Source: Candidatus Kuenenia stuttgartensis (GTDB taxonomy: Bacteria > Planctomycetota > Brocadiia > Brocadiales > Brocadiaceae). From it: DNA of 32,000 bases. Within the stretch, counting starts at the first letter, position 1; each line of letters starts with the position of its first letter. This document shows positions 4,146 to 32,000 of the stretch, one piece after another. The notes below the pieces were generated by a model. The model did no database searches, was not told the origin of the DNA, and saw only the letters and a program-made list of their open reading frames with translations. Location of the stretch: the NCBI RefSeq assembly GCF_900232105.1, contig NZ_LT934425.1, positions 1,200,001-1,232,000 on the forward strand, given 5' to 3'. Made by a program: the position numbers and the translations under genes.

Positions 4146-5348
4146 TTGGGCATTTTTGGAGCATTTATTCTAAGACGTAGCACCCGGTATCAGTTTGTCG
4201 ATGCGGTACAAATGGTAGTGATAGGGTTGATAGCAGGGGCGACATCGATGGTAGAGGTGATGAAGGTGTGTACAGATGAGGTATTGAAGAAGATGTCCGG
4301 GTGGAAAGAGGTACCTGTAGATACTACGATAGGACGTATTATGAAGCTGGCGAGTCAGGGAGATATAGTGGAACTGACGGGGGTGATCCACCGGTTTAGG
4401 GGAAAGATATGGAAGCGTGCGGTGAGATCAGGCCATAAACTCAGGAGTGCTCTTTGCGAAGTATGGATAGATGTTGATTCTACCGTAGATGGTGTATATG
4501 GGAAACAGGAGGGTGCAGAGGTAGGATATAATCCGCACAAGAAGGGGCAGAAGGCGTATCATCCCTTAATGGCATTTATTGCAGAAACAAAGGAGGTATT
4601 ACATAGTTGGTTCCGCTGTGGAAGCGCCTACACGAGTAACGGAGTAGTAGAGTTCATGAAGGAATGTATGGCGTACATGAATAAGGGGGTAAGGGTGGTA
4701 TTTCGGGGAGACAGCGGTTTTTTTACCGGAGAATTACTTGAATACCTTGAGTCAATATTGGCGGGATATCTGATTAAGGTAAAGCTGAAGAATCTGGAAG
4801 GATTGCTTGAAGGGCAGAAATGGAATGAGGTGAAAGGGGAGCCAGGATGGGAACAGGCTGAATTTTGGTATCGATGTGCAGGGTGGGATCGTGCGAGACG
4901 TTTTGTGGCAGTGCGGCAATTGGTCAAAAGAGAAAAGAAATTAGTAGAAGTGTCCGTGTATGAGTATTTTTGTTACGTTACAACGGAGCGGTTAAGTCCG
5001 ATGGAAGCGCATCGTTGTTATGGAAAGAGGGCTACCTGCGAGACTTTGATAGAAGAGAGTAAAGGACAGATGAATGCGGGGCACATACGTACGGGTGAAT
5101 TTTTGGCCAATGCTGCGCTATTTCAGTGTGCGGTGTTAGCGTATAATCTTTTGAAGTGGATGGGATTGCTCAGTGGTGGAGTGATACAACAGTGGGAAGT
5201 AAAGACGATGAGACTGTGGTTAATCCGTGTGGCAGGGAAACTGGTGGAGAGAAGCCGGCAGATGACATTAAAATTGCCGGAGAAATTTCTCCATCAGGAG
5301 GAATGGGAAAAGTGGGAACGCATGTCACTGGATGTAGTTTTTCAGTAG
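4146..5348 (+). CDS. IS1380-family DDE transposase, 5' end degenerate
   Basis: Layout typical of IS1380/ISEcp1-like enzymes: WIDVDSTV...GYNPHKKGQKAYHPL...FRGDSGF...YGKRATCETLIEESK. Family-like similarity (..KSFAGY..LGIFGAFI..) continues upstream of the TTG at 4146 but crosses three in-frame stops. Confidence 0.8.
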   Translation: MGIFGAFILRRSTRYQFVDAVQMVVIGLIAGATSMVEVMKVCTDEVLKKMSGWKEVPVDTTIGRIMKLASQGDIVELTGVIHRFRGKIWKRAVRSGHKLRSALCEVWIDVDSTVDGVYGKQEGAEVGYNPHKKGQKAYHPLMAFIAETKEVLHSWFRCGSAYTSNGVVEFMKECMAYMNKGVRVVFRGDSGFFTGELLEYLESILAGYLIKVKLKNLEGLLEGQKWNEVKGEPGWEQAEFWYRCAGWDRARRFVAVRQLVKREKKLVEVSVYEYFCYVTTERLSPMEAHRCYGKRATCETLIEESKGQMNAGHIRTGEFLANAALFQCAVLAYNLLKWMGLLSGGVIQQWEVKTMRLWLIRVAGKLVERSRQMTLKLPEKFLHQEEWEKWERMSLDVVFQ

Positions 5349-6294: not shown

Positions 6295-7678
6295 CATAAG
6301 CGCTAACTTGTTTTAGGTATGCTCGAAGTATTTTGATATCTGTGTTTTTCGGATTCTTGTATTTTCTGCTAAAGAACAAGCAATGTCATTCCAGCACTTA
6401 AGAACTTCCTGTAATGATAACGCTGGTTCTATAGCCCGTTTTACTTGATTAAGCATAAAAGCAAATTCACGCCATTTGCTTTTAGTCTTCTTGCTTGACA
6501 ATGAAGTATCCCCAGGGGGAAAAAGACGTAGCAAAATCTATTAGTTTTTCTGTCAAAAGAGCAACGAATAGTTTGCCATAAAGCCAAGCTTTTGAGCTAT
6601 CATCATCGTATTTAGGTAAGTGTCCAAATTGTGCTATTTGTTTAAATCTTTTAAAGACCAGTTCAATTTGCCATCGAACTCGATACCATTCTAAGATATC
6701 AAAAGCGGTAAATTGATTTTCAGGAAACGTTGTGAATACTATTACGTACTTGGCATAAATAAGGGTCTCCGGTTTTAGTTCAATGCCCTTTTTGCTTGCA
6801 TGTCTTTTAAGTTTTTTATGAGCTATTTTAATGGCTTCTTCTGTTTTGTGTATTATACAAAGACGACCTTTGACATATTCAGTATTATCAACGTTTGGAA
6901 TAAAAACGTTCCATGATTTTATAGCAAGGGGTCTTTTTAAATATTGGATTTCTTTCAATAAAGGAAAGGGTTTCTTTTCTTCGCCGAATATCCGTAGAGA
7001 TTGCGAATTAACTCTAACGCTAAGATAAGCGCCTTTCCTTGTTGCATGATGAATTCCTTGGCCAGTACAGTAACCTCTGTCAGCTATAATATAATCATCT
7101 TTTTTCATCGGAAACTGCCGAAAAGATTCTCCTGTGCCTTCTCCTTCAGTTCCCGTAAGTTTAAAGAAATCGCAAGATAATGAAGGAACCTCAATACTAT
7201 AATGAATGCGCCAAAGACTTCCTGTTTTCCCAGGTTCCTTTACTGTTGTTGCATCAAATAAGCGAAGATGAAAATTATTCCGTTTATTAATTTGGAGGCC
7301 ACGCTCACGGAATAAAGATAAACATAATTTATATAGCCATTCTTTGCTCTTTTTTAATCGCTTTAATAAGGCAACATCGGATAAATCTGCTAAGTTAGCA
7401 CGCTTGGCTCGAACTACTGTTTCACGCAATGAATAGCCACATCCTAAATGAATTAATAATGTTCGAAGAAGCTTTTCTTCAGATTTATCCTTGCGCAAGC
7501 CTTTTAAAGCATTTGTATCAACGGCTAAACTTTTCCAATCGTTTGGGAAGAAAGTTCTTAGAAGATCCCAATCTTCTCTCATCATGGCTTTATCCTCCTA
7601 TAGAGTGATTAGCGGGATAATTAACATAAAAATACCATGATGAATAAAATTTGTCAATAAAACAAGTTAGCGCTTATG
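6295..7678 (-). mobile_element. IS4-family insertion sequence, copy 1 (1384 bp)
   Basis: Termini are CATAAGCGCTAACTTGTTTTA ... TAAAACAAGTTAGCGCTTATG, about 21-bp perfect inverted repeats. It has an 11-bp TSD, and all three track ORFs are identical to those of the copy at 15025-16408. Confidence 0.92.
6482..7585 (-). CDS. IS4-family DDE transposase (367 aa; C-terminal ~60 aa continue in the +1 frame as ORF 6313-6534)
   Basis: DDE_Tnp_1-like: FDATTV..., IIADRGY..., and the Y-2-R-3-E-6-K signature YRVRWQIELVFKRFK. Confidence 0.9.
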   Translation of the reverse strand: MMREDWDLLRTFFPNDWKSLAVDTNALKGLRKDKSEEKLLRTLLIHLGCGYSLRETVVRAKRANLADLSDVALLKRLKKSKEWLYKLCLSLFRERGLQINKRNNFHLRLFDATTVKEPGKTGSLWRIHYSIEVPSLSCDFFKLTGTEGEGTGESFRQFPMKKDDYIIADRGYCTGQGIHHATRKGAYLSVRVNSQSLRIFGEEKKPFPLLKEIQYLKRPLAIKSWNVFIPNVDNTEYVKGRLCIIHKTEEAIKIAHKKLKRHASKKGIELKPETLIYAKYVIVFTTFPENQFTAFDILEWYRVRWQIELVFKRFKQIAQFGHLPKYDDDSSKAWLYGKLFVALLTEKLIDFATSFSPWGYFIVKQED

Positions 7679-7689: not shown

Positions 7690-8184
7690 TCCGCTATGTA
7701 AGGCTTCTATGCCTTTTTCAAAAAAATTCTCTTTAAACTTTACATCAAAGGTGAAACCTGCACAGATTCTGTGGGCAGAATCCAGGTCATGTATGCGTAC
7801 CTGGGATTTAAAAAATTCACGGTACTGGTTACTCGCACCAAGAAAATGGTGATGGGTAAAGATGATTGCATCAACAGGCTCAAGACGATTGTCAAAGCAG
7901 GAAGGGCAGTCTATCCAAAAAGACTTATCTCCTGTCTCGATACGATAAGCAGCATGTTCCAATCCAAGGGCGGGGAAGGAGTTCAAGCGGGTTACCTTTT
8001 CGTTCACAGGGGTTCCCATGACTTTAAATTTCGCAGAACATTCCGCTGAAGTAATAAATTTTTCCTTAGGGGCACCACAGAAAGGACAATTATCAGGATA
8101 ATATCCTACTATGTTATAACCACATACCAAACAAACATATTGTTCTTTTTTCACTACACAATTTATTAAAGGGACACTTCCCAT
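7679..8184 (-). pseudogene. Rubredoxin-MBL-fold-like protein, 5' part
   Basis: The probable start is the ATG at 8184 (MGSVPLIN...), with GGAGG 8 nt upstream. It has a rubredoxin-like CLVCGYN...CPFCGAPKEKF and an atypical MBL motif, IIFTHHHFLGAS. The gene is interrupted at GGHTP by IS4 copy 1. Confidence 0.6.
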
Positions 8185-8517
8185 ATTTAATTTACCTCCG
8201 ATTCTTTTTCCTTTTCCTTTTCCTTGGCCTACCGGCCTTCTTTGGCAAAAGGCCACGATCAAGCGCTTTCTCAGGCTTTTTTACAAATCGCTCTGTGCCA
8301 AGCGGCCTCCCTGTTTTGTTATAGCCACTGAGGGTCTTTAGATTAAAACGCCTTGTCTTCATCGTCAAAAAAAGACGTCTCCCCGATTGTTTCCACGTTG
8401 GGTGATATGGTGCAGATAATTCACAGCGCAGACTCTCGCTATTTTTTTGGCATACAGGGCATACAGAGGAAAATATCACACCTTAACGTGCATGTCAAAA
8501 AATATGGGAAATGTCCC
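8171..8517. repeat. TIR-bounded repeat element, long copy (347 bp)
   Basis: GGGACACTTCCCATATTT (8171-8188) and AAATATGGGAAATGTCCC (8500-8517) are inverted repeats (17/18). Both ends and about 75 bp of interior recur at 10914-11058. Confidence 0.8.
8192..8347 (-). pseudogene. C-terminal remnant of a RAYT / IS200-like (Y1, COG1943-type) transposase
   Basis: ...NKTGRPLGTERFVKKPEKALDRGLLPKKAGRPRKRK matches the characteristic tail of REP-associated tyrosine transposases (..G...LGse.F...ie..lGR.l...k.GRPRK). The catalytic N-terminal part is absent. Confidence 0.55.
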
Positions 8518-8550
8518 TACAATTCCCTACAATTCCAACGTAATTTTTTC

Positions 8551-8585: not shown

Positions 8586-8645
8586 ATGATAAAATCATTC
8601 CGTTGTCGTGAGACTCGAAAAATATTCTACCGCGAATATTCCTAG
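8586..8645 (+). pseudogene. higB: higB toxin, 5' fragment (19 codons, then the TAG supplied by the insertion)
   Basis: MIKSFRCRETRKIFYREYS is the canonical N-terminus of HigB/'killer protein' RelE-fold toxins. Confidence 0.8.
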
Positions 8646-10342
8646 CGCGGCCTTTGGCCGCAACCAAAAAGGTGATTTTTAGTTTATTATAAAGTATAGT
8701 AGTATCCTCGTAAATAGTAATCAGACAATTTGGAGGACACTACTTATGAATAAGTTGATGGAATTATATCGAGACAGGATCGTGGGTGCAATAAGCGGTC
8801 TGGACAGGATTCGTTTTCGCGGGACATTGCGGTGGTTGGCCAGTGAGCGTGGGATGGGAACATTCATGAACCAAGCGAGAATTCTGCTTAAGGATTTTTC
8901 CGGTTGGGTCAATGGGCTTACGGCACAGGTGCGAGACAGTTGTGAATCGCGGGCGAAAGATTTGGGTATCGAGGTGCGGTATTTGATGAGCAGCGGTGTT
9001 GATAAGGAGAAGTTGGCTCGCCAGATCGCGGCGGATAAGAGGATTACGGAAGGTTCCATCTGCCTGTTGAGTGTGGTAGAGCCTTGTATTGCGCCGATGG
9101 TCAAGGGCAACAAGGCCAGCAAGAAGCTCGAGTTGGTAATGGCGCCCCGCAAGTGTGTCTTTGTGTATCATTATTTTAACGATCCAGTGTTTGGTTTTGG
9201 TCATGTTCGTATCCAGAGTTGGGCGCCGTTTAATATTTTCATTTGTCTCAATGGTCGTCATTGGCTGGAGCGGCAACTTCAGAAGCAAGGTATTGATTAT
9301 GTTAAGGACGGCAACTGTTTTGTGCGTATAGAGGATATTGCGGCTGCGCAGGTTCTGCTCCATGAGCAGCTTAAGACTGACTGGGCGAAGCTGCTGAACG
9401 GGCTTGCGTTGGGCAGTTGCCCGGCATTGTCGCAGATTCTTCGTCCGTTGGAACCGGAGTATTACTGGTCTGCGGATGAGACGGAGTGGGCGACGGACAT
9501 CATGTTTAAATCGGTTGAGGCATTGGAGGAGTTGTTTCCATCGTTTGTTCATCATGCGATGCGGGTTTGCGACAGTTCTTCGGTGATGAAGTATTTGGGT
9601 AGGCGTAACCTTGCAGGCGCTGCCCCTGATGAGGTTATCAGCGACTATCGAAGACGCTATGAAGGTATACGGGTCAAGCACAGTGTGAATTATAATTCAG
9701 TGAAGATGTATAACAAGAGCGGTAGTCTCTTGCGTATTGAGACAACGATCAATAATACGCGGGACTTTAAGGTCTTTCGGAGTCCCAATGATGATGAAGG
9801 CAAACCGGCGTCATGGCAGAAGATGCGTAAGGGCGTAAGCGATCTTCATCGACGGTGTGAGGTGAGCCAACAATGCAATGATCGTTATGGGGATGCTTTG
9901 GCGGCGGCTCAGGTAGAGGAGAAACTGAAAGAAGTGGTGAGCAGCGCTTGTAACAAGGTTGTCAAAGAGGGCAAGAGGTATCGAGGTTTGAATCCCTGGC
10001 AGCAGGATGATTACCAGATGCTGATGTTCCTGTCCAAAGGCGAAAACGCGATAAATGGATTCCGCAACCATGATTTGCGTAAGTGGCTTTACCGGGAATC
10101 CGAACAATCCGGCAAGGATCAGCAAAAGAAATATTCCGGACGAACGACCCGACGGATAAAGATGCTGCGGGCACACGGTCTAATCCGCAAAGTTCCGAGG
10201 GCCAACCGCTATGTTTTGACGGAGAAAGGCCAGAAGTTCTCTTGTTCACTGATGACCGCTTCAGCCCTTGATATTAAAGCACTTACGGAAATGGCGGCAT
10301 GAAAAACACGCATAAAAAACAAGAAATTGATGGATAGTAGTA
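8643..10342 (+). mobile_element. 1700-bp single-ORF insertion in higB; no TIR, no TSD; family unknown
   Basis: It lies exactly between two colinear halves of higB. It is visibly GC-richer than higBA, and a hairpin GCGGCC-TTT-GGCCGC sits at 8647-8661 near the left end. Confidence 0.7.
8746..10302 (+). CDS. 518-aa protein of unknown family (putative mobility protein of the insertion); C-terminal winged-helix-like segment
   Basis: A long ORF with GGAGG 9 nt upstream of the ATG. I recognise no DDE/rve, HUH, or Ser/Tyr recombinase motifs. The C-terminus, RTTRRIKMLRAHGLIRKVPRANRYVLTEKG, resembles a wHTH. Confidence 0.7.
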   Translation: MNKLMELYRDRIVGAISGLDRIRFRGTLRWLASERGMGTFMNQARILLKDFSGWVNGLTAQVRDSCESRAKDLGIEVRYLMSSGVDKEKLARQIAADKRITEGSICLLSVVEPCIAPMVKGNKASKKLELVMAPRKCVFVYHYFNDPVFGFGHVRIQSWAPFNIFICLNGRHWLERQLQKQGIDYVKDGNCFVRIEDIAAAQVLLHEQLKTDWAKLLNGLALGSCPALSQILRPLEPEYYWSADETEWATDIMFKSVEALEELFPSFVHHAMRVCDSSSVMKYLGRRNLAGAAPDEVISDYRRRYEGIRVKHSVNYNSVKMYNKSGSLLRIETTINNTRDFKVFRSPNDDEGKPASWQKMRKGVSDLHRRCEVSQQCNDRYGDALAAAQVEEKLKEVVSSACNKVVKEGKRYRGLNPWQQDDYQMLMFLSKGENAINGFRNHDLRKWLYRESEQSGKDQQKKYSGRTTRRIKMLRAHGLIRKVPRANRYVLTEKGQKFSCSLMTASALDIKALTEMAA

Positions 10343-10567
10343 CGAAGGTTTCCTCGTGATATGCAAATGCGCGCATTTGCAAAGCTCAATGCGATTGATG
10401 CAGCCATCCATCTTAAAGATTTGCACCTGCCACCATCAAACCGGTTTGAGGCGTTAAAGGGCGAACGTAAGGAGCAGTATAGCATTCGAATCAATGATAG
10501 ATGGCGTATTTGTTTTGAGTGGCGTAATGGTAACGCAGAAGAGGTCGAAATTGTTGATTATCATTAA
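10343..10567 (+). pseudogene. higB: higB toxin, 3' fragment
   Basis: RRFPRDMQMRAFAKLNAIDAAIHLKDLHLPPSNRFEALKGERKEQYSIRINDRWRICFEWRNGNAEEVEIVDYH is the conserved HigB core and C-terminus. It ends 12 nt before higA. Confidence 0.85.
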
Positions 10568-10579
10568 GGAGGTTACATA

Positions 10580-10894
10580 ATGGCTAAACGTCGTATTACT
10601 CCAGTTCACCCTGGGGTATATCTGAAAGAATTACTCGATGAATTAAAAATATCACAATACCGGCTATCACAGGATTTAGGTGTGCCTGCCATGAGGATCA
10701 ATCATGTGGTACATAGCAAACGTCCGGTAACTGCAGAGCTTGCCTTGCGTTTAGGGCGCTATTTTGGTCAAAGCCCGCGCTATTGGATGAACCTGCAAAG
10801 CCGGTATGATATGGATATTGCCGAAGATGCCTTATTCGAACAGGTAACACGTGAAGTTCGCCCCTTTAACGGTAGATTTATAATTCACAAGTAA
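10580..10894 (+). CDS. higA: HigA-family antitoxin (XRE-type HTH)
   Basis: PVHPGVYLKELLDELKISQYRLSQDLGVPAMRINHVVHSKRPVTAELALRLGRYFGQSPRYWMNLQSRYD is the typical HigA/VapI HTH. The SD AAGGAGG lies upstream. Confidence 0.9.
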   Translation: MAKRRITPVHPGVYLKELLDELKISQYRLSQDLGVPAMRINHVVHSKRPVTAELALRLGRYFGQSPRYWMNLQSRYDMDIAEDALFEQVTREVRPFNGRFIIHK

Positions 10895-10913: not shown

Positions 10914-11058
10914 ATAGAGGGACACTTCCCATATTTAATTTACACCCGATTCTTTTTCCTTGCGCATACTCTTGCTATTTTTTTGGCATACAGGGCATAC
11001 AGAGGAAAATATCACACCTTAAAGTGCATGTCAAAAAATATGGGAAGTGTCCCTCTAT
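10914..11058. repeat. TIR-bounded repeat element, short (MITE-like) copy, 145 bp
   Basis: Perfect 23-bp terminal inverted repeats, ATAGAGGGACACTTCCCATATTT / AAATATGGGAAGTGTCCCTCTAT. The interior matches 8189-8215 plus 8430-8499 of the long copy, which makes it an internal-deletion derivative. Confidence 0.8.
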
Positions 11059-12354: not shown

Positions 12355-12429
12355 TTATATCTCCTTTATTAAATACAAACTATATAAACGGGAGTATGCT
12401 GAGATTTCCCCAACCCATGGGCTACGATT

Positions 12430-13284
12430 TTACCAAAAATTGTTTATATCACTTTCAAGTGTATCAAGGCGTCCGGAAATTTCGCCTTTTTCATCGGAGG
12501 TAAGGGGTTGGCCTTTTATCCGTTGCAAAAATTCCCTTCGGACTTCATCTAATCTCAATTGGAAATCCCTTCCCCGGACACGCGGCAATCTTCCGATCAG
12601 CATCCCATCGTCAATCTTCCTCTGGAGTACGATCATCCAATCCTCGAGCCTTGTCTCATCGATTCTTGAAGGATAGGCACGCACCTTCTTGACCTCCCCT
12701 TCCAGCTCGTTCAGTGTCGCGATAAGGGGATCCCATTCTTTCTGCGTGGTCTTTCTTTCCCTCAGCACCGTATAATCCCTTCGGAGATTATCAAGTTTTG
12801 TCATAAAAGCCTGAGATTCGTTAGGGGTTAATTCACCAGATCCCAACCCATTGCCAATCGTCTGTTGAAGCAAAAACATTCGATCCGAGAATTGTGTCTC
12901 ATCGATTCTTGAAGGATAGGCACGCACCTTCTTGATCTCCCCTTCCAGCTCGTCCAGTTTCGTGATAATGGGATCCCATTCCTTCTGCGTGGTCTTTCTT
13001 TCCCTCAGCACCGTATAATCCCTGCGGAGATTATCAAGTTTTATCAGAAAAGTCTGTGCCTCGTTATGGGTTAACTCACCAGATCCCAACCCATTGCCAA
13101 TCGTCTGCTGAAGCGAAAACATTCGATCCTCGGTTTTCCTTTCGTTTTCAGGCCATCTTTGAGAATGATAAACCAAATCACATTGTACCAGAACGGTCGT
13201 CATCCCCAGAACAATTGCAATAAGTAATATCTTTTTCTTAAAATACCCTCCTTTCAAATATTTCAAATAATCAATTGCCTTCAT
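12430..13284 (-). CDS. Exported/anchored repeat protein, three ~81-aa helical modules (paralogue of 13646-14242)
   Basis: The likely start is the ATG at 13284 (MKAIDYLKY...), with GGAGG 9 nt upstream. A hydrophobic N-terminus ends ..VLVQC. Modules follow DRMF.LQQTIGNGLGSGELT..E.Q.F..KLDNLRRDYTVLRERKTTQKEWDP...L.ELEGE.KKVRAYPSRIDET. Confidence 0.75.
   Translation of the reverse strand: MKAIDYLKYLKGGYFKKKILLIAIVLGMTTVLVQCDLVYHSQRWPENERKTEDRMFSLQQTIGNGLGSGELTHNEAQTFLIKLDNLRRDYTVLRERKTTQKEWDPIITKLDELEGEIKKVRAYPSRIDETQFSDRMFLLQQTIGNGLGSGELTPNESQAFMTKLDNLRRDYTVLRERKTTQKEWDPLIATLNELEGEVKKVRAYPSRIDETRLEDWMIVLQRKIDDGMLIGRLPRVRGRDFQLRLDEVRREFLQRIKGQPLTSDEKGEISGRLDTLESDINNFW
12653..13138. repeat. Intragenic tandem duplication, 2 x 243 bp (81 aa)
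   Basis: 12653-12895 and 12896-13138 align base for base with roughly 90% identity. A third, more diverged unit lies at 12430-12650. Confidence 0.85.
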
Positions 13285-13435
13285 CTTTCTTTTCCTCCTT
13301 TCTGAATTGTACATCGATGTAGATTTTTCAGATTGTTTATTCAGGAAACTGATACTTCAACCATGTATGTTGGGTTTCGTTCCCCGACCCAACCTTATAA
13401 ATTAGGCCTTCGGCAACTTTTCATGGATACTGAAC

Positions 13436-13463
13436 GTAGGGGTTGAAGATTTTCAACCCTTAC
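13436..13463. repeat. REP-like GTAG hairpin
   Basis: GTAGGGGTTGAAGATTTTCAACCCTTAC, with near-perfect 12-bp arms. It is preceded by AAATTAGGCCTTCGGCAACTTTTCATG, which recurs before the next hairpin. Confidence 0.65.
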
Positions 13464-13516
13464 ATTGAAACATTGAAATCCCTTAACGGTAAATTAGGCC
13501 TACGGCGACTTCTCAT

Positions 13517-13543
13517 GTAGAGCGAAGTGGCACTTCGCTCTAC
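13517..13543. repeat. REP-like GTAG hairpin
   Basis: GTAGAGCGAAGTG-G-CACTTCGCTCTAC is a perfect 13-bp stem followed by GCAATTTTGAAATGCTAAAAC. A close relative lies at 29827-29875. Confidence 0.7.
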
Positions 13544-13645
13544 AGCCGCAATTTTGAAATGCTAAAACATCAAGAAAAGTCCCACAGGGTTCGGGCAACA
13601 TAAACGGGAGTCTACCGGGATTTCCCCAACTCATGAGCTACGATT

Positions 13646-14242
13646 TTACAAAGCATTGTTTACATCGCTTTCAAGTAAATCAAGGCGGCTGGAGGTCTCT
13701 CCTTTTTCCTCGGTGGTTAAGGGTCGGTCTTTTATTCGTTGCAAAAATTCCCTTCGTATATCATCTAATCTCAATTGAAAGTCCCTTCCCTGGACACGCC
13801 GCAATCTTCCAATAAGCATCCCATCGTCGAGCCTCCTCTGGAGCACGATCATCCGATCCTCGAGTTTTGTCTCATCGATTCTTGAAGGATAGGCGAGCAC
13901 CACCTTAACCTCCTTCTCCATATCTTCCAGTTTCGTGAGAAGGGGCGCCCATTCCTCTTGCGTAGTCTTTCTTTCTCTCAGCACAGTGTAATCCCTTCGG
14001 AGATTATCAAGTTTTACCACAAATTCCTGAGACGCATCAAGGGTTAATTCACCGGACCCCAACCCCTTGCCAATTTCCTGTTGAAGCAAAAACATTCGAT
14101 CCTCAGTTCTTCTTTCATTTTCCGGCCATCTCTGAGAGACCGAAGCACATTGTACTAGAACGGTCATCATCCCCAGAACAATTACGAGAAGCAGCATTTT
14201 TTTCTTAAAATACCTTACTTGCAAAAAATCAATTACCTTCAT
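13646..14242 (-). CDS. Exported/anchored repeat protein, two ~81-aa modules (paralogue of 12430-13284)
   Basis: It has the same N-terminus (MKVIDFLQVRYFKKKMLLLVIVLGMMTVLVQC), modules, SD and 5'/3' flanks as the upstream paralogue. Confidence 0.8.
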   Translation of the reverse strand: MKVIDFLQVRYFKKKMLLLVIVLGMMTVLVQCASVSQRWPENERRTEDRMFLLQQEIGKGLGSGELTLDASQEFVVKLDNLRRDYTVLRERKTTQEEWAPLLTKLEDMEKEVKVVLAYPSRIDETKLEDRMIVLQRRLDDGMLIGRLRRVQGRDFQLRLDDIRREFLQRIKDRPLTTEEKGETSSRLDLLESDVNNAL

Positions 14243-14466
14243 CTTTTCTTTCCTCCTTTTCTAATTGTACATCGGGATAGACTTCCCAGAATGGTTATTC
14301 AGGGAACTTATACTTCAGACATGCAGGCCTGCGCTTTCAACCCTTGCTATTGTTTATTTATCTTTTGCTTATGCTTATACACGCCTTTCGTTTCTATAGT
14401 ACATTCCTTTCCTTAAAATGATTCGTGACAAATCGTGTCCTTCTCGTTTTCAATCTCCTCCTGCGA

Positions 14467-25021: not shown

Positions 25022-26047
25022 CGACGGTTGTATTTGAAATCGTTAAACTATTAAATGTTGTTATACTTGTGCCGGCAATGGTTTGCTCTGATGTACCATT
25101 AAATGTCACGACGCCAGTACCGGCAGTAAAGGTGCTGTTGTTTGTCCAGTTGCCTGTCAGACTCAGGGTGCTCGAATTGCCATCAAGTGTTCCTGCAGTG
25201 AGCGTTACATAGCCATTGATAATGTGAGATAATCCGCTGCCGGGATTTAACGTCCCGCCGCTCCCATTCATCGTTAATGATGCAGCCGTAACACTGCCTG
25301 TAAGAGTCGCCGTGCTTGCTGTCCTCTCAAAGGAAAGCGCCCCTGTTGTAGAGAAACCGGCGATGTTTGGCGTAGCGCTCGTTCCGCCAATGGTTATATT
25401 GGAGCCGTTAGCGGTAAACGTGGCGCTATTAGTAAAACTCCCGTTTAACGTCAGGGCATAGTTGCTTGCTGATGTGTTGAATGTCCCTCCCGTAATATTT
25501 AATGTCCCGTTCACAATTATGGCCGCCCCCAGCGTTCCCGTTCCTGTGCCGGACTTTGTAAGGTTATTAAAGGTAGTGGCATTATTGGTAATCGTTTGTG
25601 CGCCGCTTCCGTTAAAATTGACTGACCCTGTACCGGCGGTAAACGTTGCCGAACCTGTCCAGTTACCGGTCAGGCTCAGAGTACCTGAACTGCCATCGAG
25701 TGTGCCCGCAGTGAGTGTTACGTTACCGTTGATGGCGTGAGATAATCCACTGCCAAGATTTAACGTCCCGCCGCTCCCGTTCATCGTTAATGATGCAGCC
25801 GTAACATTGCCGGTAAGAGTCGCAGTGCTTGCCGTCCGTTCAAATGAAAGCGCCCCTGTTGTCGAGAAACCTGCAATGCCCGGCGTAGCACTTGTTCCGC
25901 CAATAATTATGTTAGACCCATTTGCCGTAAATGTTGCATTGTTAACAAAACTGCCGTTCAAGGTTAAAGCATAGTTGCTTGCGGATGTATTAAGCGTACC
26001 TGCCGTGATGGTAAGGTCGCCGTTTACTATGATGGCGGCGCCAAGCG
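25022..26047. repeat. Intragenic tandem duplication, 2 x 513 bp (171 aa)
   Basis: GAGATAATCC... at 25226 recurs at 25739. The protein units TLGAAIIVNG.L.IT.GT.NTSASNYALTLNGSF...TFN.LT are near-identical. Confidence 0.8.
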
Positions 26048-29000
26048 TCGCCGTCCGCCCGGATTTGTCAATAGTGAGATGATGATAGGTTGTTCCCTTT
26101 ACCGTTTGCGCAGCGGTCGTGCTGGTGTAGTTAACCGTATTGGAATTGACCGTTGCCGTCAGGGTAGTAATGTCTGAAGTACCGCCAATATTTAAAACAG
26201 CGCCACTGCCCTGGGTAAGCCCGCCAGAACCGCTTAAGGCTGTGTCAACGGTCAGGGTTGTGTTGTTGGTGAGGGTAACTTCTGCAACCGTCACACTGGG
26301 AATTGAAATCGCCGATGTTCCTCTGATTGCTTGGTTGTTTGTGTCAAAGGTATATACTCCCGTTCCGGCGTCAAAGGTCGCGCCGTTATGAATGATCCCT
26401 CCCTGAAAGGTCACCGCCTCATTAGCCGAATTATTCCATGTTCCGCCAGCATCAATTGTGACCAATCCTACAAACATCTTTGTTCCGGTTTTGCGTGTGA
26501 TACCTAATGTGCCTGCAATACTCGTGATGCCATTTGCCGTTAAGGTGTTAGAGCCTGTATTGAACGTTCCTGCCGTTACAGTAAGGACTCCGTTCACTGT
26601 GGTGGTAGCACCCAGAGTTGCTGTATTTGACACCTTGTTAATCGTGAGATGATGATAAGTCGTTCCTTTTACCGTCTGATTGCCAGCGCCATTATAATTA
26701 ACCGTATTGGGATTGGCAGTAGCAGTCAGGGTAGTAATGCCTGAAGAACCGCCGATGTTTAATACGGCGCCGCTGCCCTGTATAAGCTCCCTTCCACTGC
26801 CACTACCACTACTGCTTAAGGCAGTTTCAACCGTTAAAGTTGCATTATTCGTGAGGGTTGCTCCCGAGGCAACGGTTATTGTTGGAATCGAAAAGTCACT
26901 ATCGACAGAATAATCTGTTGTAAAAGTAGCAGCGGTAAGTGATTTCGAGGCCGCCGTGCCGCTGAGTGTGCCGCCGCCTCCTGACTTCTGAAATGTCCAT
27001 GTGCCCTGAGTCCCCGTGATTGACCCTGTTCCGTCTATCTGCAGATTGCCATTCATCGTAACGCCTTCTGTGACGGTGAAATCCATGGCGCCACCGTCAT
27101 TTATTATAATATCGCCAAATGTCTTTGTGTTCGACTTTGAAGTGATGTTTATTGCGCCAGTTACGCTTGTTGTTCCTGTGACGGTTGATGTAACACCTCC
27201 AATACCAAGCGTTCCGGAGGTAATGGTAAGATTGCCGTTTATTGTGATAGTTGCCCCGAACGACGCCGTATTCGAGGCCTTATTAATGGTAAGGTGATTA
27301 AATGTAGTAGTCTTGCTTCCGATTGTTTGATCATTCGTTCCGGTAAATACTACGGTACCGGTGTTTGCCGTAAATGTTCCTGAGCCTGTCCAGTTGCCGT
27401 AAAGCGTTAAAGTACTCGATCCCCCATTCAATGTTCCTGCGGTTAGCACAACATTGCCTGTGATGGTGTGGTTGAATGCAGCGCCAAGATTAAACGTCCC
27501 GCCCGATGCGTTTACGGTAAGATTGCCTGCTATAGTAAGTGTCGAATCAGGTGTTTTTGTCCCTGCGCCTGAGATTGTCAGGTTTTGATAACCCGGTGTT
27601 CCGGATACAGTCTGAGTTATTCCCGATGTATATTCCACCGTTGTTCCGGAGGCGATATTTAATGTATTAAACGATGGAAACGTAGTCCCTACTGTCGCTG
27701 AGCCTAGTTTAACCGTTCCGGATGTGAGGTTAAGAACGCTGGAGCCAGATAGGGTGATTACATAACCTCCATCGCTAAAGACACTATTTGATGTTACGTC
27801 GCCAATCGTAAGCGTGTTAACTGTTATATTGCCCCCAAGGGTGCCCCCGGCGGTATTATTGACCTTCAGCGTTACATATGTTCCTGCATGTATTGCCTGG
27901 GTAGCGGAACCATTATAATTAACCACGTTCCCGCTTGCAGATGCCGTCAGGGTGGTAATGTCTGAAGTACCGCCGATGTTTAAAACAGCGTTGCTTTCCT
28001 GCGTGATCCCTCCCGTGCCGCTCAAGGCCGTGCCAACCATCAGGGTAATGCTGTTGGTAAGGGTAACGCCCGTAACGGTTACTCTGGGGATAGAAATCGC
28101 TGTTGTCCCTCCTATTACCTGGCTGTTAATATCAAAGGTTTGCACTGCCGTTCCAGCGGTAAAGGCAGCGCCGTTATGTGTAATCCCTCCCTGAAAGGTC
28201 ACCGCTTCGTTAGCCGAGTTATTCCAGACACCGCCTGAATTGATCGTAACCATTCCGGTAAACGTCTTTGTTCCGGTTGTGCTCGTGATACCTAATGTTC
28301 CTGTAACACTCGTAATACCGTTTGCAGCTAAGGTATAAGCGCCTGTATTAAGCGTTCCTGCCGTAATGGTAAGGTCTCCATTCACGGTAGTTGTAGCGCC
28401 AAGCGTTGCGGTTTGGCCTGATTTGTTGATAGTTAGATGGTGATAGGTAGTCCCTTTTACTGTTTGTGAAGCCGTTGTACTGGTGTAGTTGACCGTATTG
28501 GGATTGGCAGTCGCAGTCAGGGTGGTAATGGCTGAAGTGCCGCCGATGTTTAAAACAGCGTTGCTTCCCTGGGTAAGCCCACCTGTGCCGCTTAAGGCTG
28601 TGCCAACCGTTAAAATTGTGCTATTAGTGAGGGTGACTCCCGTAACGGTTATACTGGAAATGGAAATTGCCGTTGTCCCTCCGATCTCCTGGCTGTTTGT
28701 TGCAAATGTCTGCACCCCAGTTCCGGCGGTAAAGGTCGCGCCGTTATGGGTGATTCCTCCCCGAAAAGTCACTGCCTCATTCGCTGAGTTGTCCCACGTT
28801 CCACCCGCATCAATTGTAACCAGTCCGACAAAGATCTTTGTCCCTGTATCTGAAGTGATGTTTACCGTTCCGTCAATAGTTGTCGGGCCGGTAACCGTTG
28901 ATGTTACTCCCCCTAAATTAAGCGTACCGGTTCCGTTAACAGAAAGATTTTCTGCAATGGTTAAAGTACCGCTATTTACCGTTGCTGTGCCATCGATGGC

Positions 29001-31808: not shown

Positions 31809-31837
31809 TATACGGCTGCGCTTCGCGCAGCCGTATA
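31809..31837. repeat. Perfect 13-bp-stem hairpin
   Basis: TATACGGCTGCGC-TTC-GCGCAGCCGTATA. The right arm runs straight into the tandem array. Confidence 0.8.
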
Positions 31838-31913
31838 ACCATAGCCGTATAACCATAGCCGTATAACCATAGCCGTATAACCATAGCCGTATAACCATAG
31901 CCGTATAACCATA
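31831..31913. repeat. 14-bp tandem repeat (CCGTATAACCATAG), 5 perfect units plus 1 partial
   Basis: Units start at 31831, 31845, 31859, 31873, 31887 and 31901. This produces the artefactual 14-aa-periodic ORFs YGYTAMVIRLWL... Confidence 0.9.
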
Positions 31914-32000
31914 ATAGTCATGTAAGAATAAAGCACAGTAATGTCTAAAATCAAAAAAAATCTTACTGTCGAAGGCTGAATAATTCAGCACTTATCGGTA

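Follow-up and report, generated by a model that had tools for sequence, protein, structure and literature searches.

Transposase chemistries are few, comprising the DDE, DEDD and HUH (Y1 and Y2) enzymes and the serine and tyrosine recombinases. The Rep_trans enzymes are listed only as replication initiators of plasmids and phages and as relaxases of integrative and conjugative elements (PMC5714925, PMC13107129); their known roles are replication and conjugation (PMC5714925), and no report of transposition by them was found in the literature searched. The structures of RepSTK1 and RepDE show a concave 10-stranded sheet built of two five-strand modules with pseudo-2-fold symmetry, in which strand 1 occupies the center, flanked by strands 2-5 on one side and by strand 6 with strands 8-11 on the other (PMC4797284). 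The metal ligands of RepD (D46, D142 and E214) are on three separate strands, and its nucleophile, Y191, is on strand 10 between R189 and K193 (PMC4797284). Five motifs mark the group, namely N' (D), I (RxD), II ([TS]x[YE]xG), III (YxKxxE) and IV ([WL]xRxE) (PMC5714925), and the canonical nick falls within the loop of a GC-rich hairpin, at CT^AA (PMC9371924). A Rep_trans relative, Rep-Arvir, combines the TATA-binding protein (TBP) fold with a MarR-like winged helix-turn-helix (wHTH) and is invisible to sequence search; it gives wHTH matches only in the PDB and giant-virus TBPs in a viral library (PMC13107129). Here we compare these enzymes with the product of a 1700-bp insertion that splits higB, the toxin gene of a higBA toxin-antitoxin pair, in Candidatus Kuenenia stuttgartiensis (32,000 nucleotides of contig NZ_LT934425.1, positions 1,200,001 to 1,232,000, hereafter the window). 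The insertion belongs to an undescribed insertion sequence (IS) family of wide distribution and is a copy with recent activity. We propose, with a probability of roughly 0.6, that this new family is driven by a non-HUH, Rep_trans-like tyrosine nuclease moving single-stranded DNA, as suggested by sequence motifs and a predicted fold.

The initial annotation had described a complete HigB of about 93 amino acids (aa), split by 1700 bp with no residue missing, and this was borne out. Joined in frame, the two fragments (8586-8641/2 and 10342/3-10567) encode 93 aa that match PF05015 in one stretch spanning the junction in a profile search (E 1e-17, residues 13-93) and align without gaps to 93-aa orthologues at up to 91% identity. 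An uninterrupted higB, which the initial annotation had proposed to look for, was found at the same locus in strain CSTR1 (CP049055; L068) and at L072 and L073, while the site is occupied in the window, L069 and L071; an identical HigA protein is present in several Ca. Kuenenia stuttgartiensis assemblies. Strains with empty and occupied alleles share more than 99% average nucleotide identity, and the 1-kb flanks on each side show 0 mismatches between the window and L068. The empty allele reads ...GAATATTC^ACGAAGG and the occupied one ...GAATATTC, then the element (CTAGCGCGG...GATAGTAGT), then ACGAAGG, with no base duplicated and none lost. From this comparison the insert is 8642-10341. The length first given thus holds and the position (8643-10342) does not; we prefer junctions one base to the left because no single-nucleotide polymorphism is then needed, whereas the earlier ones require one exactly at the junction. 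The window reads ...CGCGAATATTCC TAGCGCGGCCTTTGGCCGC... across the left junction (8630-8661) and ...GGATAGTAGTA CGAAGGTTTCC... across the right one (10332-10353). As had been stated from the sequence, there is neither a target site duplication nor a terminal inverted repeat: the former is ruled out by the empty allele, in which the direct repeat that seems to span the insertion is already present, and the latter is absent between the left end, CTAGCGCGGCC, and the right end, ...GGATAGTAGT. In the window the insertion has knocked out the higB toxin, and higA is still intact.

Two further observations concern the same site. In a Kuenenia metagenome-assembled genome (JAOSKF01; L070) the higB site reads TTCAACGAAGG, which is the empty site with one extra A that puts higB out of frame; the additional base could have been left behind when the element was excised, or could be a sequencing error in a homopolymer. 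Within the higB target (8622-8641), a short inverted repeat, ATATTC-TACCGC-GAATAT, stops 2 nt ahead of the insertion point.

Further copies of the element were sought and found, with unrelated flanks and identical ends. CP049055 carries at least 10 copies, identical at 1699-1700 of 1700 positions, at unrelated sites that include the ftsW-murG spacer and the neighbourhood of flagellar and restriction genes; of the 10 copies listed, 8 are on the reverse strand, a sample too small to assess an orientation bias. The exact 518-aa protein encoded by the element is found on 153 contigs, and a scan of the genome collection revealed 56 loci spanning Brocadiaceae, Pirellulales, Gemmataceae, Desulfobacterota, Acidobacteriota, Alphaproteobacteria, Hydrogenedentota and others, several genomes having multiple near-identical copies. 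In independent copies, similarity to the window starts at about 8641-8645 and stops at about 10342-10348; because they share exactly these ends, the split of higB is far beyond chance. The segment might have proved single-copy everywhere and always in this context; instead the family is multi-copy and widespread, with more than 4500 protein matches and 5502 clusters at 50% identity in many phyla. The exact protein has also been deposited as Staphylococcus aureus and Escherichia coli, entries that are probably contamination of those assemblies with anammox DNA.

Several arrangements show repeated use of insertion sites. At L024 (1590-1610), two full copies lie head-to-tail 9 nt apart (ACAGAGTTC), the right flank of one copy being the target motif for the next. 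L028 holds a 154-nt miniature derivative (4589-4742), made up only of a 24-nt left end and a right end of about 60 nt and lying immediately against the right end of a full-length copy, and L154 shows the same abutment of right end and left end; in both, the same insertion point was used again. Overall, multiple copies with identical ends and the lack of a match to any known IS family support the suggestion, made from the sequence, of an undescribed autonomous element with asymmetric ends and no target duplication. No description of the family or of its end sequences was found in the literature searched, ISfinder being outside this comparison.

The ends of the element are conserved across subfamilies down to 29-45% protein identity, following N-Y-R-GCGC(G/A)GC-loop-GCCGC-AACCAAA on the left and (A/T)TAGTAGT on the right. 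The stem of the left-end hairpin stays paired through compensatory changes (GCGGCC/GGCCGC, GCGGGC/GCCCGC, GCGGCT/AGCCGC and CCGG/CCGG), with a recurrent mismatch at the third stem position, and the loops vary from 3 to 12 nt. In the window the hairpin is perfect, as noted at the outset, and lies 5 nt inside the corrected left end rather than the 4 nt first given. Folding of both ends revealed no significant structure at the right one. A full-length homologue at 29% identity, annotated as an ArsR family regulator on plasmid pOLGA1 of Paraburkholderia phytofirmans OLGA172 (L205, 252808-254322), keeps a hairpin, CCGG-ACGAG-CCGG, in its upstream region, followed by AACCAAAC. The internal repeat of the right-end tip (Table 1) is a possible wHTH binding site. 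The element is, as had been noted, richer in GC (48.5%) than higBA (42.9%), and the 3-kb flanks have 37-41%.

Table 1 Features of the interrupted higBA locus and of the element (window positions; ^, insertion point)
Feature	Position	Strand	Remarks
higB 5' fragment	8586..8641	+	codons 1-18 and first two bases of Ser19; sequence MIKSFRCRETRKIFYREYS; read-through into the element ends at stop TAG 8643-8645
Target motif in left flank	8629..8641	+	ACCGCGAATATTC^, local form of (A)ACCAC(A/G)GA-N3-4-C^
Insertion sequence, 1700 bp	8642..10341	+	ends from empty site and independent copies
Left end	8642..8672	+	CTA, GC, hairpin GCGGCC-TTT-GGCCGC (8647-8661) and AACCAAAAAGG box (8662-8672); structure conserved across subfamilies
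Internal copy of right-end tip, ATAGTAGTA	8696..8704	+	conserved in Brocadiales subfamily
Shine-Dalgarno GGAGG	8732..8736	+	9 nt before ATG
Putative transposase open reading frame, 518 aa	8746..10302	+	only long open reading frame in the element
Right-end tip TAGTAGT	10335..10341	+	conserved across subfamilies; no hairpin
higB 3' fragment	10342..10567	+	third base of Ser19 to stop; starts ACGAAGG
higA antitoxin (HTH_3)	10580..10894	+	intact

Target choice was analyzed with 166 unique left flanks (80 loci from the metagenome scan). The base just before the element is C in 90% of the 166 sites, which also backs the shift of the ends by 1 nt, and C[AG]C[AGT][AG]A starts at -11/-10 in 77 of them against 7 expected. 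Right flanks start with A-(C/T)-R-R-A. Insertion has a fixed orientation and goes into C^A, with a CACRGA motif about 10 nt upstream; the higB site, CGCGAATATTC^ACGAAGG, agrees with the right-flank preference. The pentamers upstream and downstream of one site are alike beyond the consensus (163 matches versus 133±5, with the observed value reached in 0 of 2000 permutations), and CACAGATTAC^ACAGATTA and CACGGAACAC^ACGGAATA are typical sites. Since both units are present in the empty higB allele, this likeness reflects a target preference, for tandem units, and not duplication. The target box resembles the element's own AACCAAAAAGG box. Many of the sites at L058-L067 (e.g. L063, L064 and L067; L058 and L059) lie in short tandem 9-nt repeats (CACAGATTA; CACGGAAYA); such repeats recur in the Kuenenia genome, and two of these sites adjoin PDDEXK_3 (GxxExxY) genes.

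The element has a single conserved open reading frame, preceded in the window by the good Shine-Dalgarno sequence already pointed out, and its 518-aa product is most likely the transposase of the element. Searches with hmmscan against Pfam, NCBIfam, PHROGs and PADLOC detected no transposase or other family in it, only a weak C-terminal wHTH, and known IS families, phage families and defence systems were ruled out on that basis. A core of about 400 residues outside the helix-turn-helix region is strongly conserved, and the invariant or nearly invariant residues include D20, R21, G26, E112, Y141, Y143, R155, W159, E247, D251, G307, K320, Y322, K324, R330 and E332. No conserved core residue is a histidine, and the classical HUH motif is therefore absent.

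An AlphaFold2 model built with an 86-sequence alignment (predicted local distance difference test, pLDDT, 93.3; predicted template modelling score, pTM, 0.83) comprises two five-strand modules that would form a TBP-like sheet (residues ~12-386) and a C-terminal winged helix (~420-518). The first long strand spans residues 12-27, four lie in 103-169, the sixth in 240-254 and four more in 298-335; helices cover one face, and a helical/wHTH region forms the C-terminus. The predicted order, strand 1, then 2-5, then 6, then 8-11, fits the description of RepSTK1/RepDE when long strands alone are counted. Foldseek gave nothing significant against the PDB, where TBPs took ranks 2-4 (probability ~0.6, TM ~0.4 normalised by TBP length) and MarR/ArlR wHTH domains were also among the matches. 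Against the viral structures of BFVD, the best match was an unnamed 483-aa protein (E 6e-5), and giant-virus TBPs were found at E 5e-4. An internal duplication between the two halves of the protein was not detected by hhalign.

The comparison with Rep_trans started from the likeness of K-M-Y-(N/D)-K ... L-R-(I/V)-E to RepC/RepD of pT181; the RepD peptide was confirmed in plasmid records, and a RepD-type gene (PF02486) was retrieved. Five blocks of the IS protein are collinear with RepD: GLD20RIRFRG with SFD46AMTIVG on predicted strand 1, TE247WATD251 with RLD142LAFD on predicted strand 6, Y305EG307IR with Y178FG180VR on predicted strand 9, K320MY322NK324 with R189IY191NK193 on predicted strand 10, and LR330IE332 with WRVE214 on predicted strand 11. 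These blocks include the published metal ligands, the nucleophile and its flanking basic residues, on strands that are equivalent in the model. The consensus of a diverse Rep_trans alignment reads S-I-D-R-I-T-I-V-G, R-x-D-x-A-x-D, Y-x-G-x-R, R-x-Y-N-K-K and W-R-x-E, and motifs N' (D20) and IV (L-x-R330-x-E332) occur in this order in the family. In 40 family members the collinear five-block score lies 1.5-4.3 standard deviations above shuffles (about 3), with the N', III and usually the IV blocks falling on the predicted residues. With the window protein, the observed score was matched by 0 of 100 shuffles.

The protein would thus share with Rep_trans/MOB_T enzymes (RepC/RepD of pT181/pC221 and RepSTK1; NicK, Tn916 Orf20 and RelSt3) a two-module, curved antiparallel TBP-like sheet of about 10 strands, collinear N' and I-IV-like motifs, with Asp/Glu ligands and the Tyr of [KR]-x-Y-[ND]-K on strands and not on a helix, an attached DNA-binding domain of the helix-turn-helix type and a GC-rich hairpin in the DNA substrate. 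Rep-Arvir/DUF7845 (RepSNJ2, betapleolipoviruses) resembles it, on the proposed reading, in the combination of a TBP-fold nuclease with a MarR-like wHTH, in a conserved hairpin and in the same Foldseek pattern, but differs in its Tyr motif (KHYY versus K-M-Y-D-K of the IS family) and in being a replication initiator of archaeal viruses and plasmids rather than a multi-copy chromosomal element; no sequence or profile similarity between DUF7845 and the IS family was detected. In fold, the enzyme appears closest to Rep_trans, MOB_T and Rep-Arvir. The initial label of an "unclassifiable" protein is accordingly right for profile searches, and needs revision where the predicted fold and the five motifs point to Rep_trans/TBP-fold nucleases.

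Several results weigh against this assignment. PF02486 gave no match at E<=10 with 86 members and 10 core fragments, hmmsearch --max was null, and hhalign of the family with a 12-sequence Rep_trans alignment gave P=0.02 and a probability of 2%, with only N' in register. A profile search of the PDB returned MarR-type wHTH only, and RepDE is absent among the 50 PDB Foldseek matches listed. Three motifs deviate: motif I is partial (Q-x-E247-x-A-x-D251 versus R-x-D142-x-A-x-D), as is motif II (Y-E-G307-x-R versus Y-x-G180-x-R), and motif III, K-x-Y322-x-K, is without the trailing E. The canonical Rep_trans nick at CT^AA in a loop does not apply, as the left junction, C^CTAGC, lies outside the stem, 5 nt to its 5' side, the right one reads TAGTAGT^A, and the loop is tiny (3-4 nt) and variable. 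No circle junction or covalent intermediate has been observed. Further differences from Rep_trans are the size of the core (about 400 aa versus about 220) and the additional invariant E112, Y141/Y143 and R155 in module 1. A homologue search with RepD returned only Staphylococcus Reps of at least 85% identity, which were of no use for a profile, and a single-sequence AlphaFold2 model of RepD (pLDDT 43) was too poor to serve in a fold search from the other side. The family could be linked neither to Rep_trans nor to Rep-Arvir at the sequence level, the profile tests being negative, and the protein is not filed as a member of PF02486; the proposed link, for which the likeness is beyond HMM/HH detection, rests on fold class and motifs and not on significant sequence statistics.

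The negative profile tests also leave room for an autonomous IS whose chemistry is unrelated to Rep_trans, with either a DDE-like hydrolytic and transesterification center formed by the five conserved acidic residues of the sheet and no covalent Tyr intermediate, or Y143 as the nucleophile. All evidence for mobility applies equally to such an element, and invariant Y143, together with E112 and R155 in module 1, is without counterpart among the published Rep_trans catalytic residues. We nevertheless consider it rather unlikely, as the five collinear blocks set the published catalytic residues on equivalent predicted strands (PMC4797284, PMC5714925). As to the DDE version, it is tyrosine nucleases acting on single strands, and not DDE enzymes, that typically go with a missing target duplication, a hairpin at one end and an oriented target. 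A speculative variant of the Rep_trans-like enzyme would have Y143, with E112 and R155, form a second active site per monomer.

Rep_trans-like motifs and a GC hairpin also recall a double-strand origin, and many metagenome contigs are about 1.7 kb long. Both would suit a tiny integrating rolling-circle replicon or satellite, in which the protein is the initiator, the hairpin the origin and the chromosomal copies an integrated episome. Those of the 1.7-kb contigs that were examined, however, begin and end at the element ends and are not circularly permuted, which is the signature of repeat collapse and not of a circle. Phage records gave no match to the family, and its plasmid occurrences are in chromosomal-type contexts only. 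At least 10 identical integrated copies and a miniature derivative suit transposition, and we regard a replicon as improbable.

It would be still more surprising if the open reading frame were a DNA-binding passenger or regulator and the segment were moved by an enzyme encoded elsewhere. The wHTH is the only domain recognizable by sequence, and family proteins are all named "hypothetical" apart from one remote plasmid-borne member that PGAP labels an ArsR regulator. The same single-gene unit with the same ends nevertheless recurs across many phyla with no obvious common helper, the conserved core outside the wHTH contains invariant Y, E and R residues, and the miniature derivative keeps the ends only, as expected if the protein acts in trans.

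An RNA-guided element like IS110/IS1111 (DEDD enzymes with a bridge or seeker RNA), which would share the lack of terminal inverted repeats, the usual lack of target duplications, sequence-specific oriented insertion into repeats and room for an RNA in the 104-nt non-coding left end, or a self-splicing intron, is scarcely credible, as DEDD domains (PF01548 and PF02371) and a conserved long non-coding RNA are absent, conservation of the left end between subfamilies is confined to about 27 nt, identical copies sit at varied target pentamers (CAGAT, CGGAA, CAAAG and TAAAT) that a fixed guide cannot specify, copies are mostly intergenic, and a bridge RNA or intron was rejected by an Rfam scan of the window that returned no RNA family, introns included, and by the unstructured right end.

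With a Rep_trans-like enzyme, transposition can be pictured by analogy with Rep_trans and HUH proteins, and the following steps are likely on that footing. The protein would be a metal-dependent tyrosine nuclease with a TBP-like two-module sheet, as in RepC/RepD, NicK and RelSt3, fused to a MarR-like winged helix; the metal would be held by D20, E247 (with D251) and E332, and Y322 in K-M-Y-N-K would be the nucleophile. The wHTH and the sheet would recognize the GC hairpin and AACCAAA box of the left end and the TAGTAGT tip of the right end, and in the Brocadiales subfamily the internal ATAGTAGTA (8696-8704) is perhaps bound too. Y322 would then nick one strand at flank-C^element and TAGTAGT^A, giving 5'-phosphotyrosine links. 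The strand might be excised as a circle and the flanks resealed, as for IS608, or a replication fork might displace it until the hairpin ends transfer, as for IS91 and Helitrons. It would be rejoined at a C^A step that follows a CACRGA box at a distance of about 10 nt, a placement seen in the insertions themselves, while the joining reaction is what we infer. Such a single-strand mechanism would explain the fixed orientation, the absence of duplications and inverted repeats and the precise empty sites.

In its behavior the element is closest to IS200/IS605 and, when the other strand is considered, to IS91 and Helitrons, although its protein is unrelated to HUH enzymes. It shares with IS200/IS605 (HUH Y1 TnpA; IS608 and ISDra2) the lack of target duplications and terminal inverted repeats, oriented insertion 3' of a short target kept at the left end, a subterminal hairpin, reuse of sites giving tandem or abutting copies, and derivatives of the miniature inverted-repeat transposable element (MITE) kind. 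It differs in the size of the protein (518 aa versus about 150), which has no match to Y1_Tnp (PF01797) and no HUH motif, in having a hairpin at the left end only rather than subterminal hairpins at both, and in a target that includes the longer CACRGA motif. Read on the bottom strand, 5'-ACTACTA...hairpin-GCTAG-3', the element resembles IS91, ISCR and Helitrons in a terminator-like hairpin a few nt from the 3' end, in insertion beside a short target without duplication and in two invariant tyrosines (Y143 and Y322). In contrast to these elements, it has no HUH/Y2 domain (PF04986 and PF14319 unmatched), no zinc-binding N-terminus and no helicase, and its tyrosines are predicted on separate sheet modules and not on one helix. 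The idea of a non-canonical chemistry, raised in the initial annotation, fits this picture, in which a Rep_trans-like nuclease would be the non-HUH analogue of the enzymes of IS200/IS605 and IS91. The element would be a single-strand IS of the tyrosine-nuclease type, its enzyme coming from a lineage for which transposition has not been reported.

The region around higBA is an IS hotspot. A MITE-like element with 22-bp terminal inverted repeats (TAGAGGGACACTTCCCATATTT) is present as a 142-bp copy just after higA (10915-11056) and as a 352-bp variant just before higB (8167-8518), the latter with an extra 212 bp (8214-8425), and the two copies bracket the higBA cassette. About 1 kb upstream, an open reading frame on the minus strand (6482-7585) encodes an IS4/IS5-type DDE transposase (PF01609, 367 aa). 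Elsewhere in the window, a tandem array of about 7 copies of a 14-nt unit, AGCCGTATAACCAT, is found at 31815-31926, and large diverged direct repeats (72-85% identity) at 12384-14323 and 25143-28864, in or between long open reading frames, are paralogous repeat-protein genes.

In one Kuenenia lineage a toxin-antitoxin pair has thus been disarmed by an IS, while sister strains have it intact. Whether the element is the founding example of a further prokaryotic transposase class, in which a TBP-fold, Rep_trans-type (non-HUH) tyrosine nuclease moves single-stranded DNA, we judge to be an even question. If so, a second, non-HUH lineage of rolling-circle nucleases would also have been recruited for transposition, in parallel to the HUH enzymes, among which a single fold serves Rep, relaxase and TnpA. 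The annotation pipelines checked would then all have missed a large IS family whose clusters, in the thousands, range from Planctomycetota to Proteobacteria and Acidobacteriota. Its compact requirements in cis (about 27 nt on the left and about 10-60 nt on the right), together with scar-free, oriented and motif-directed insertion, could make it a tool. Overall, the assignment would give a function to thousands of proteins labeled hypothetical or ArsR and would improve the annotation of insertion sequences in anammox and environmental genomes.

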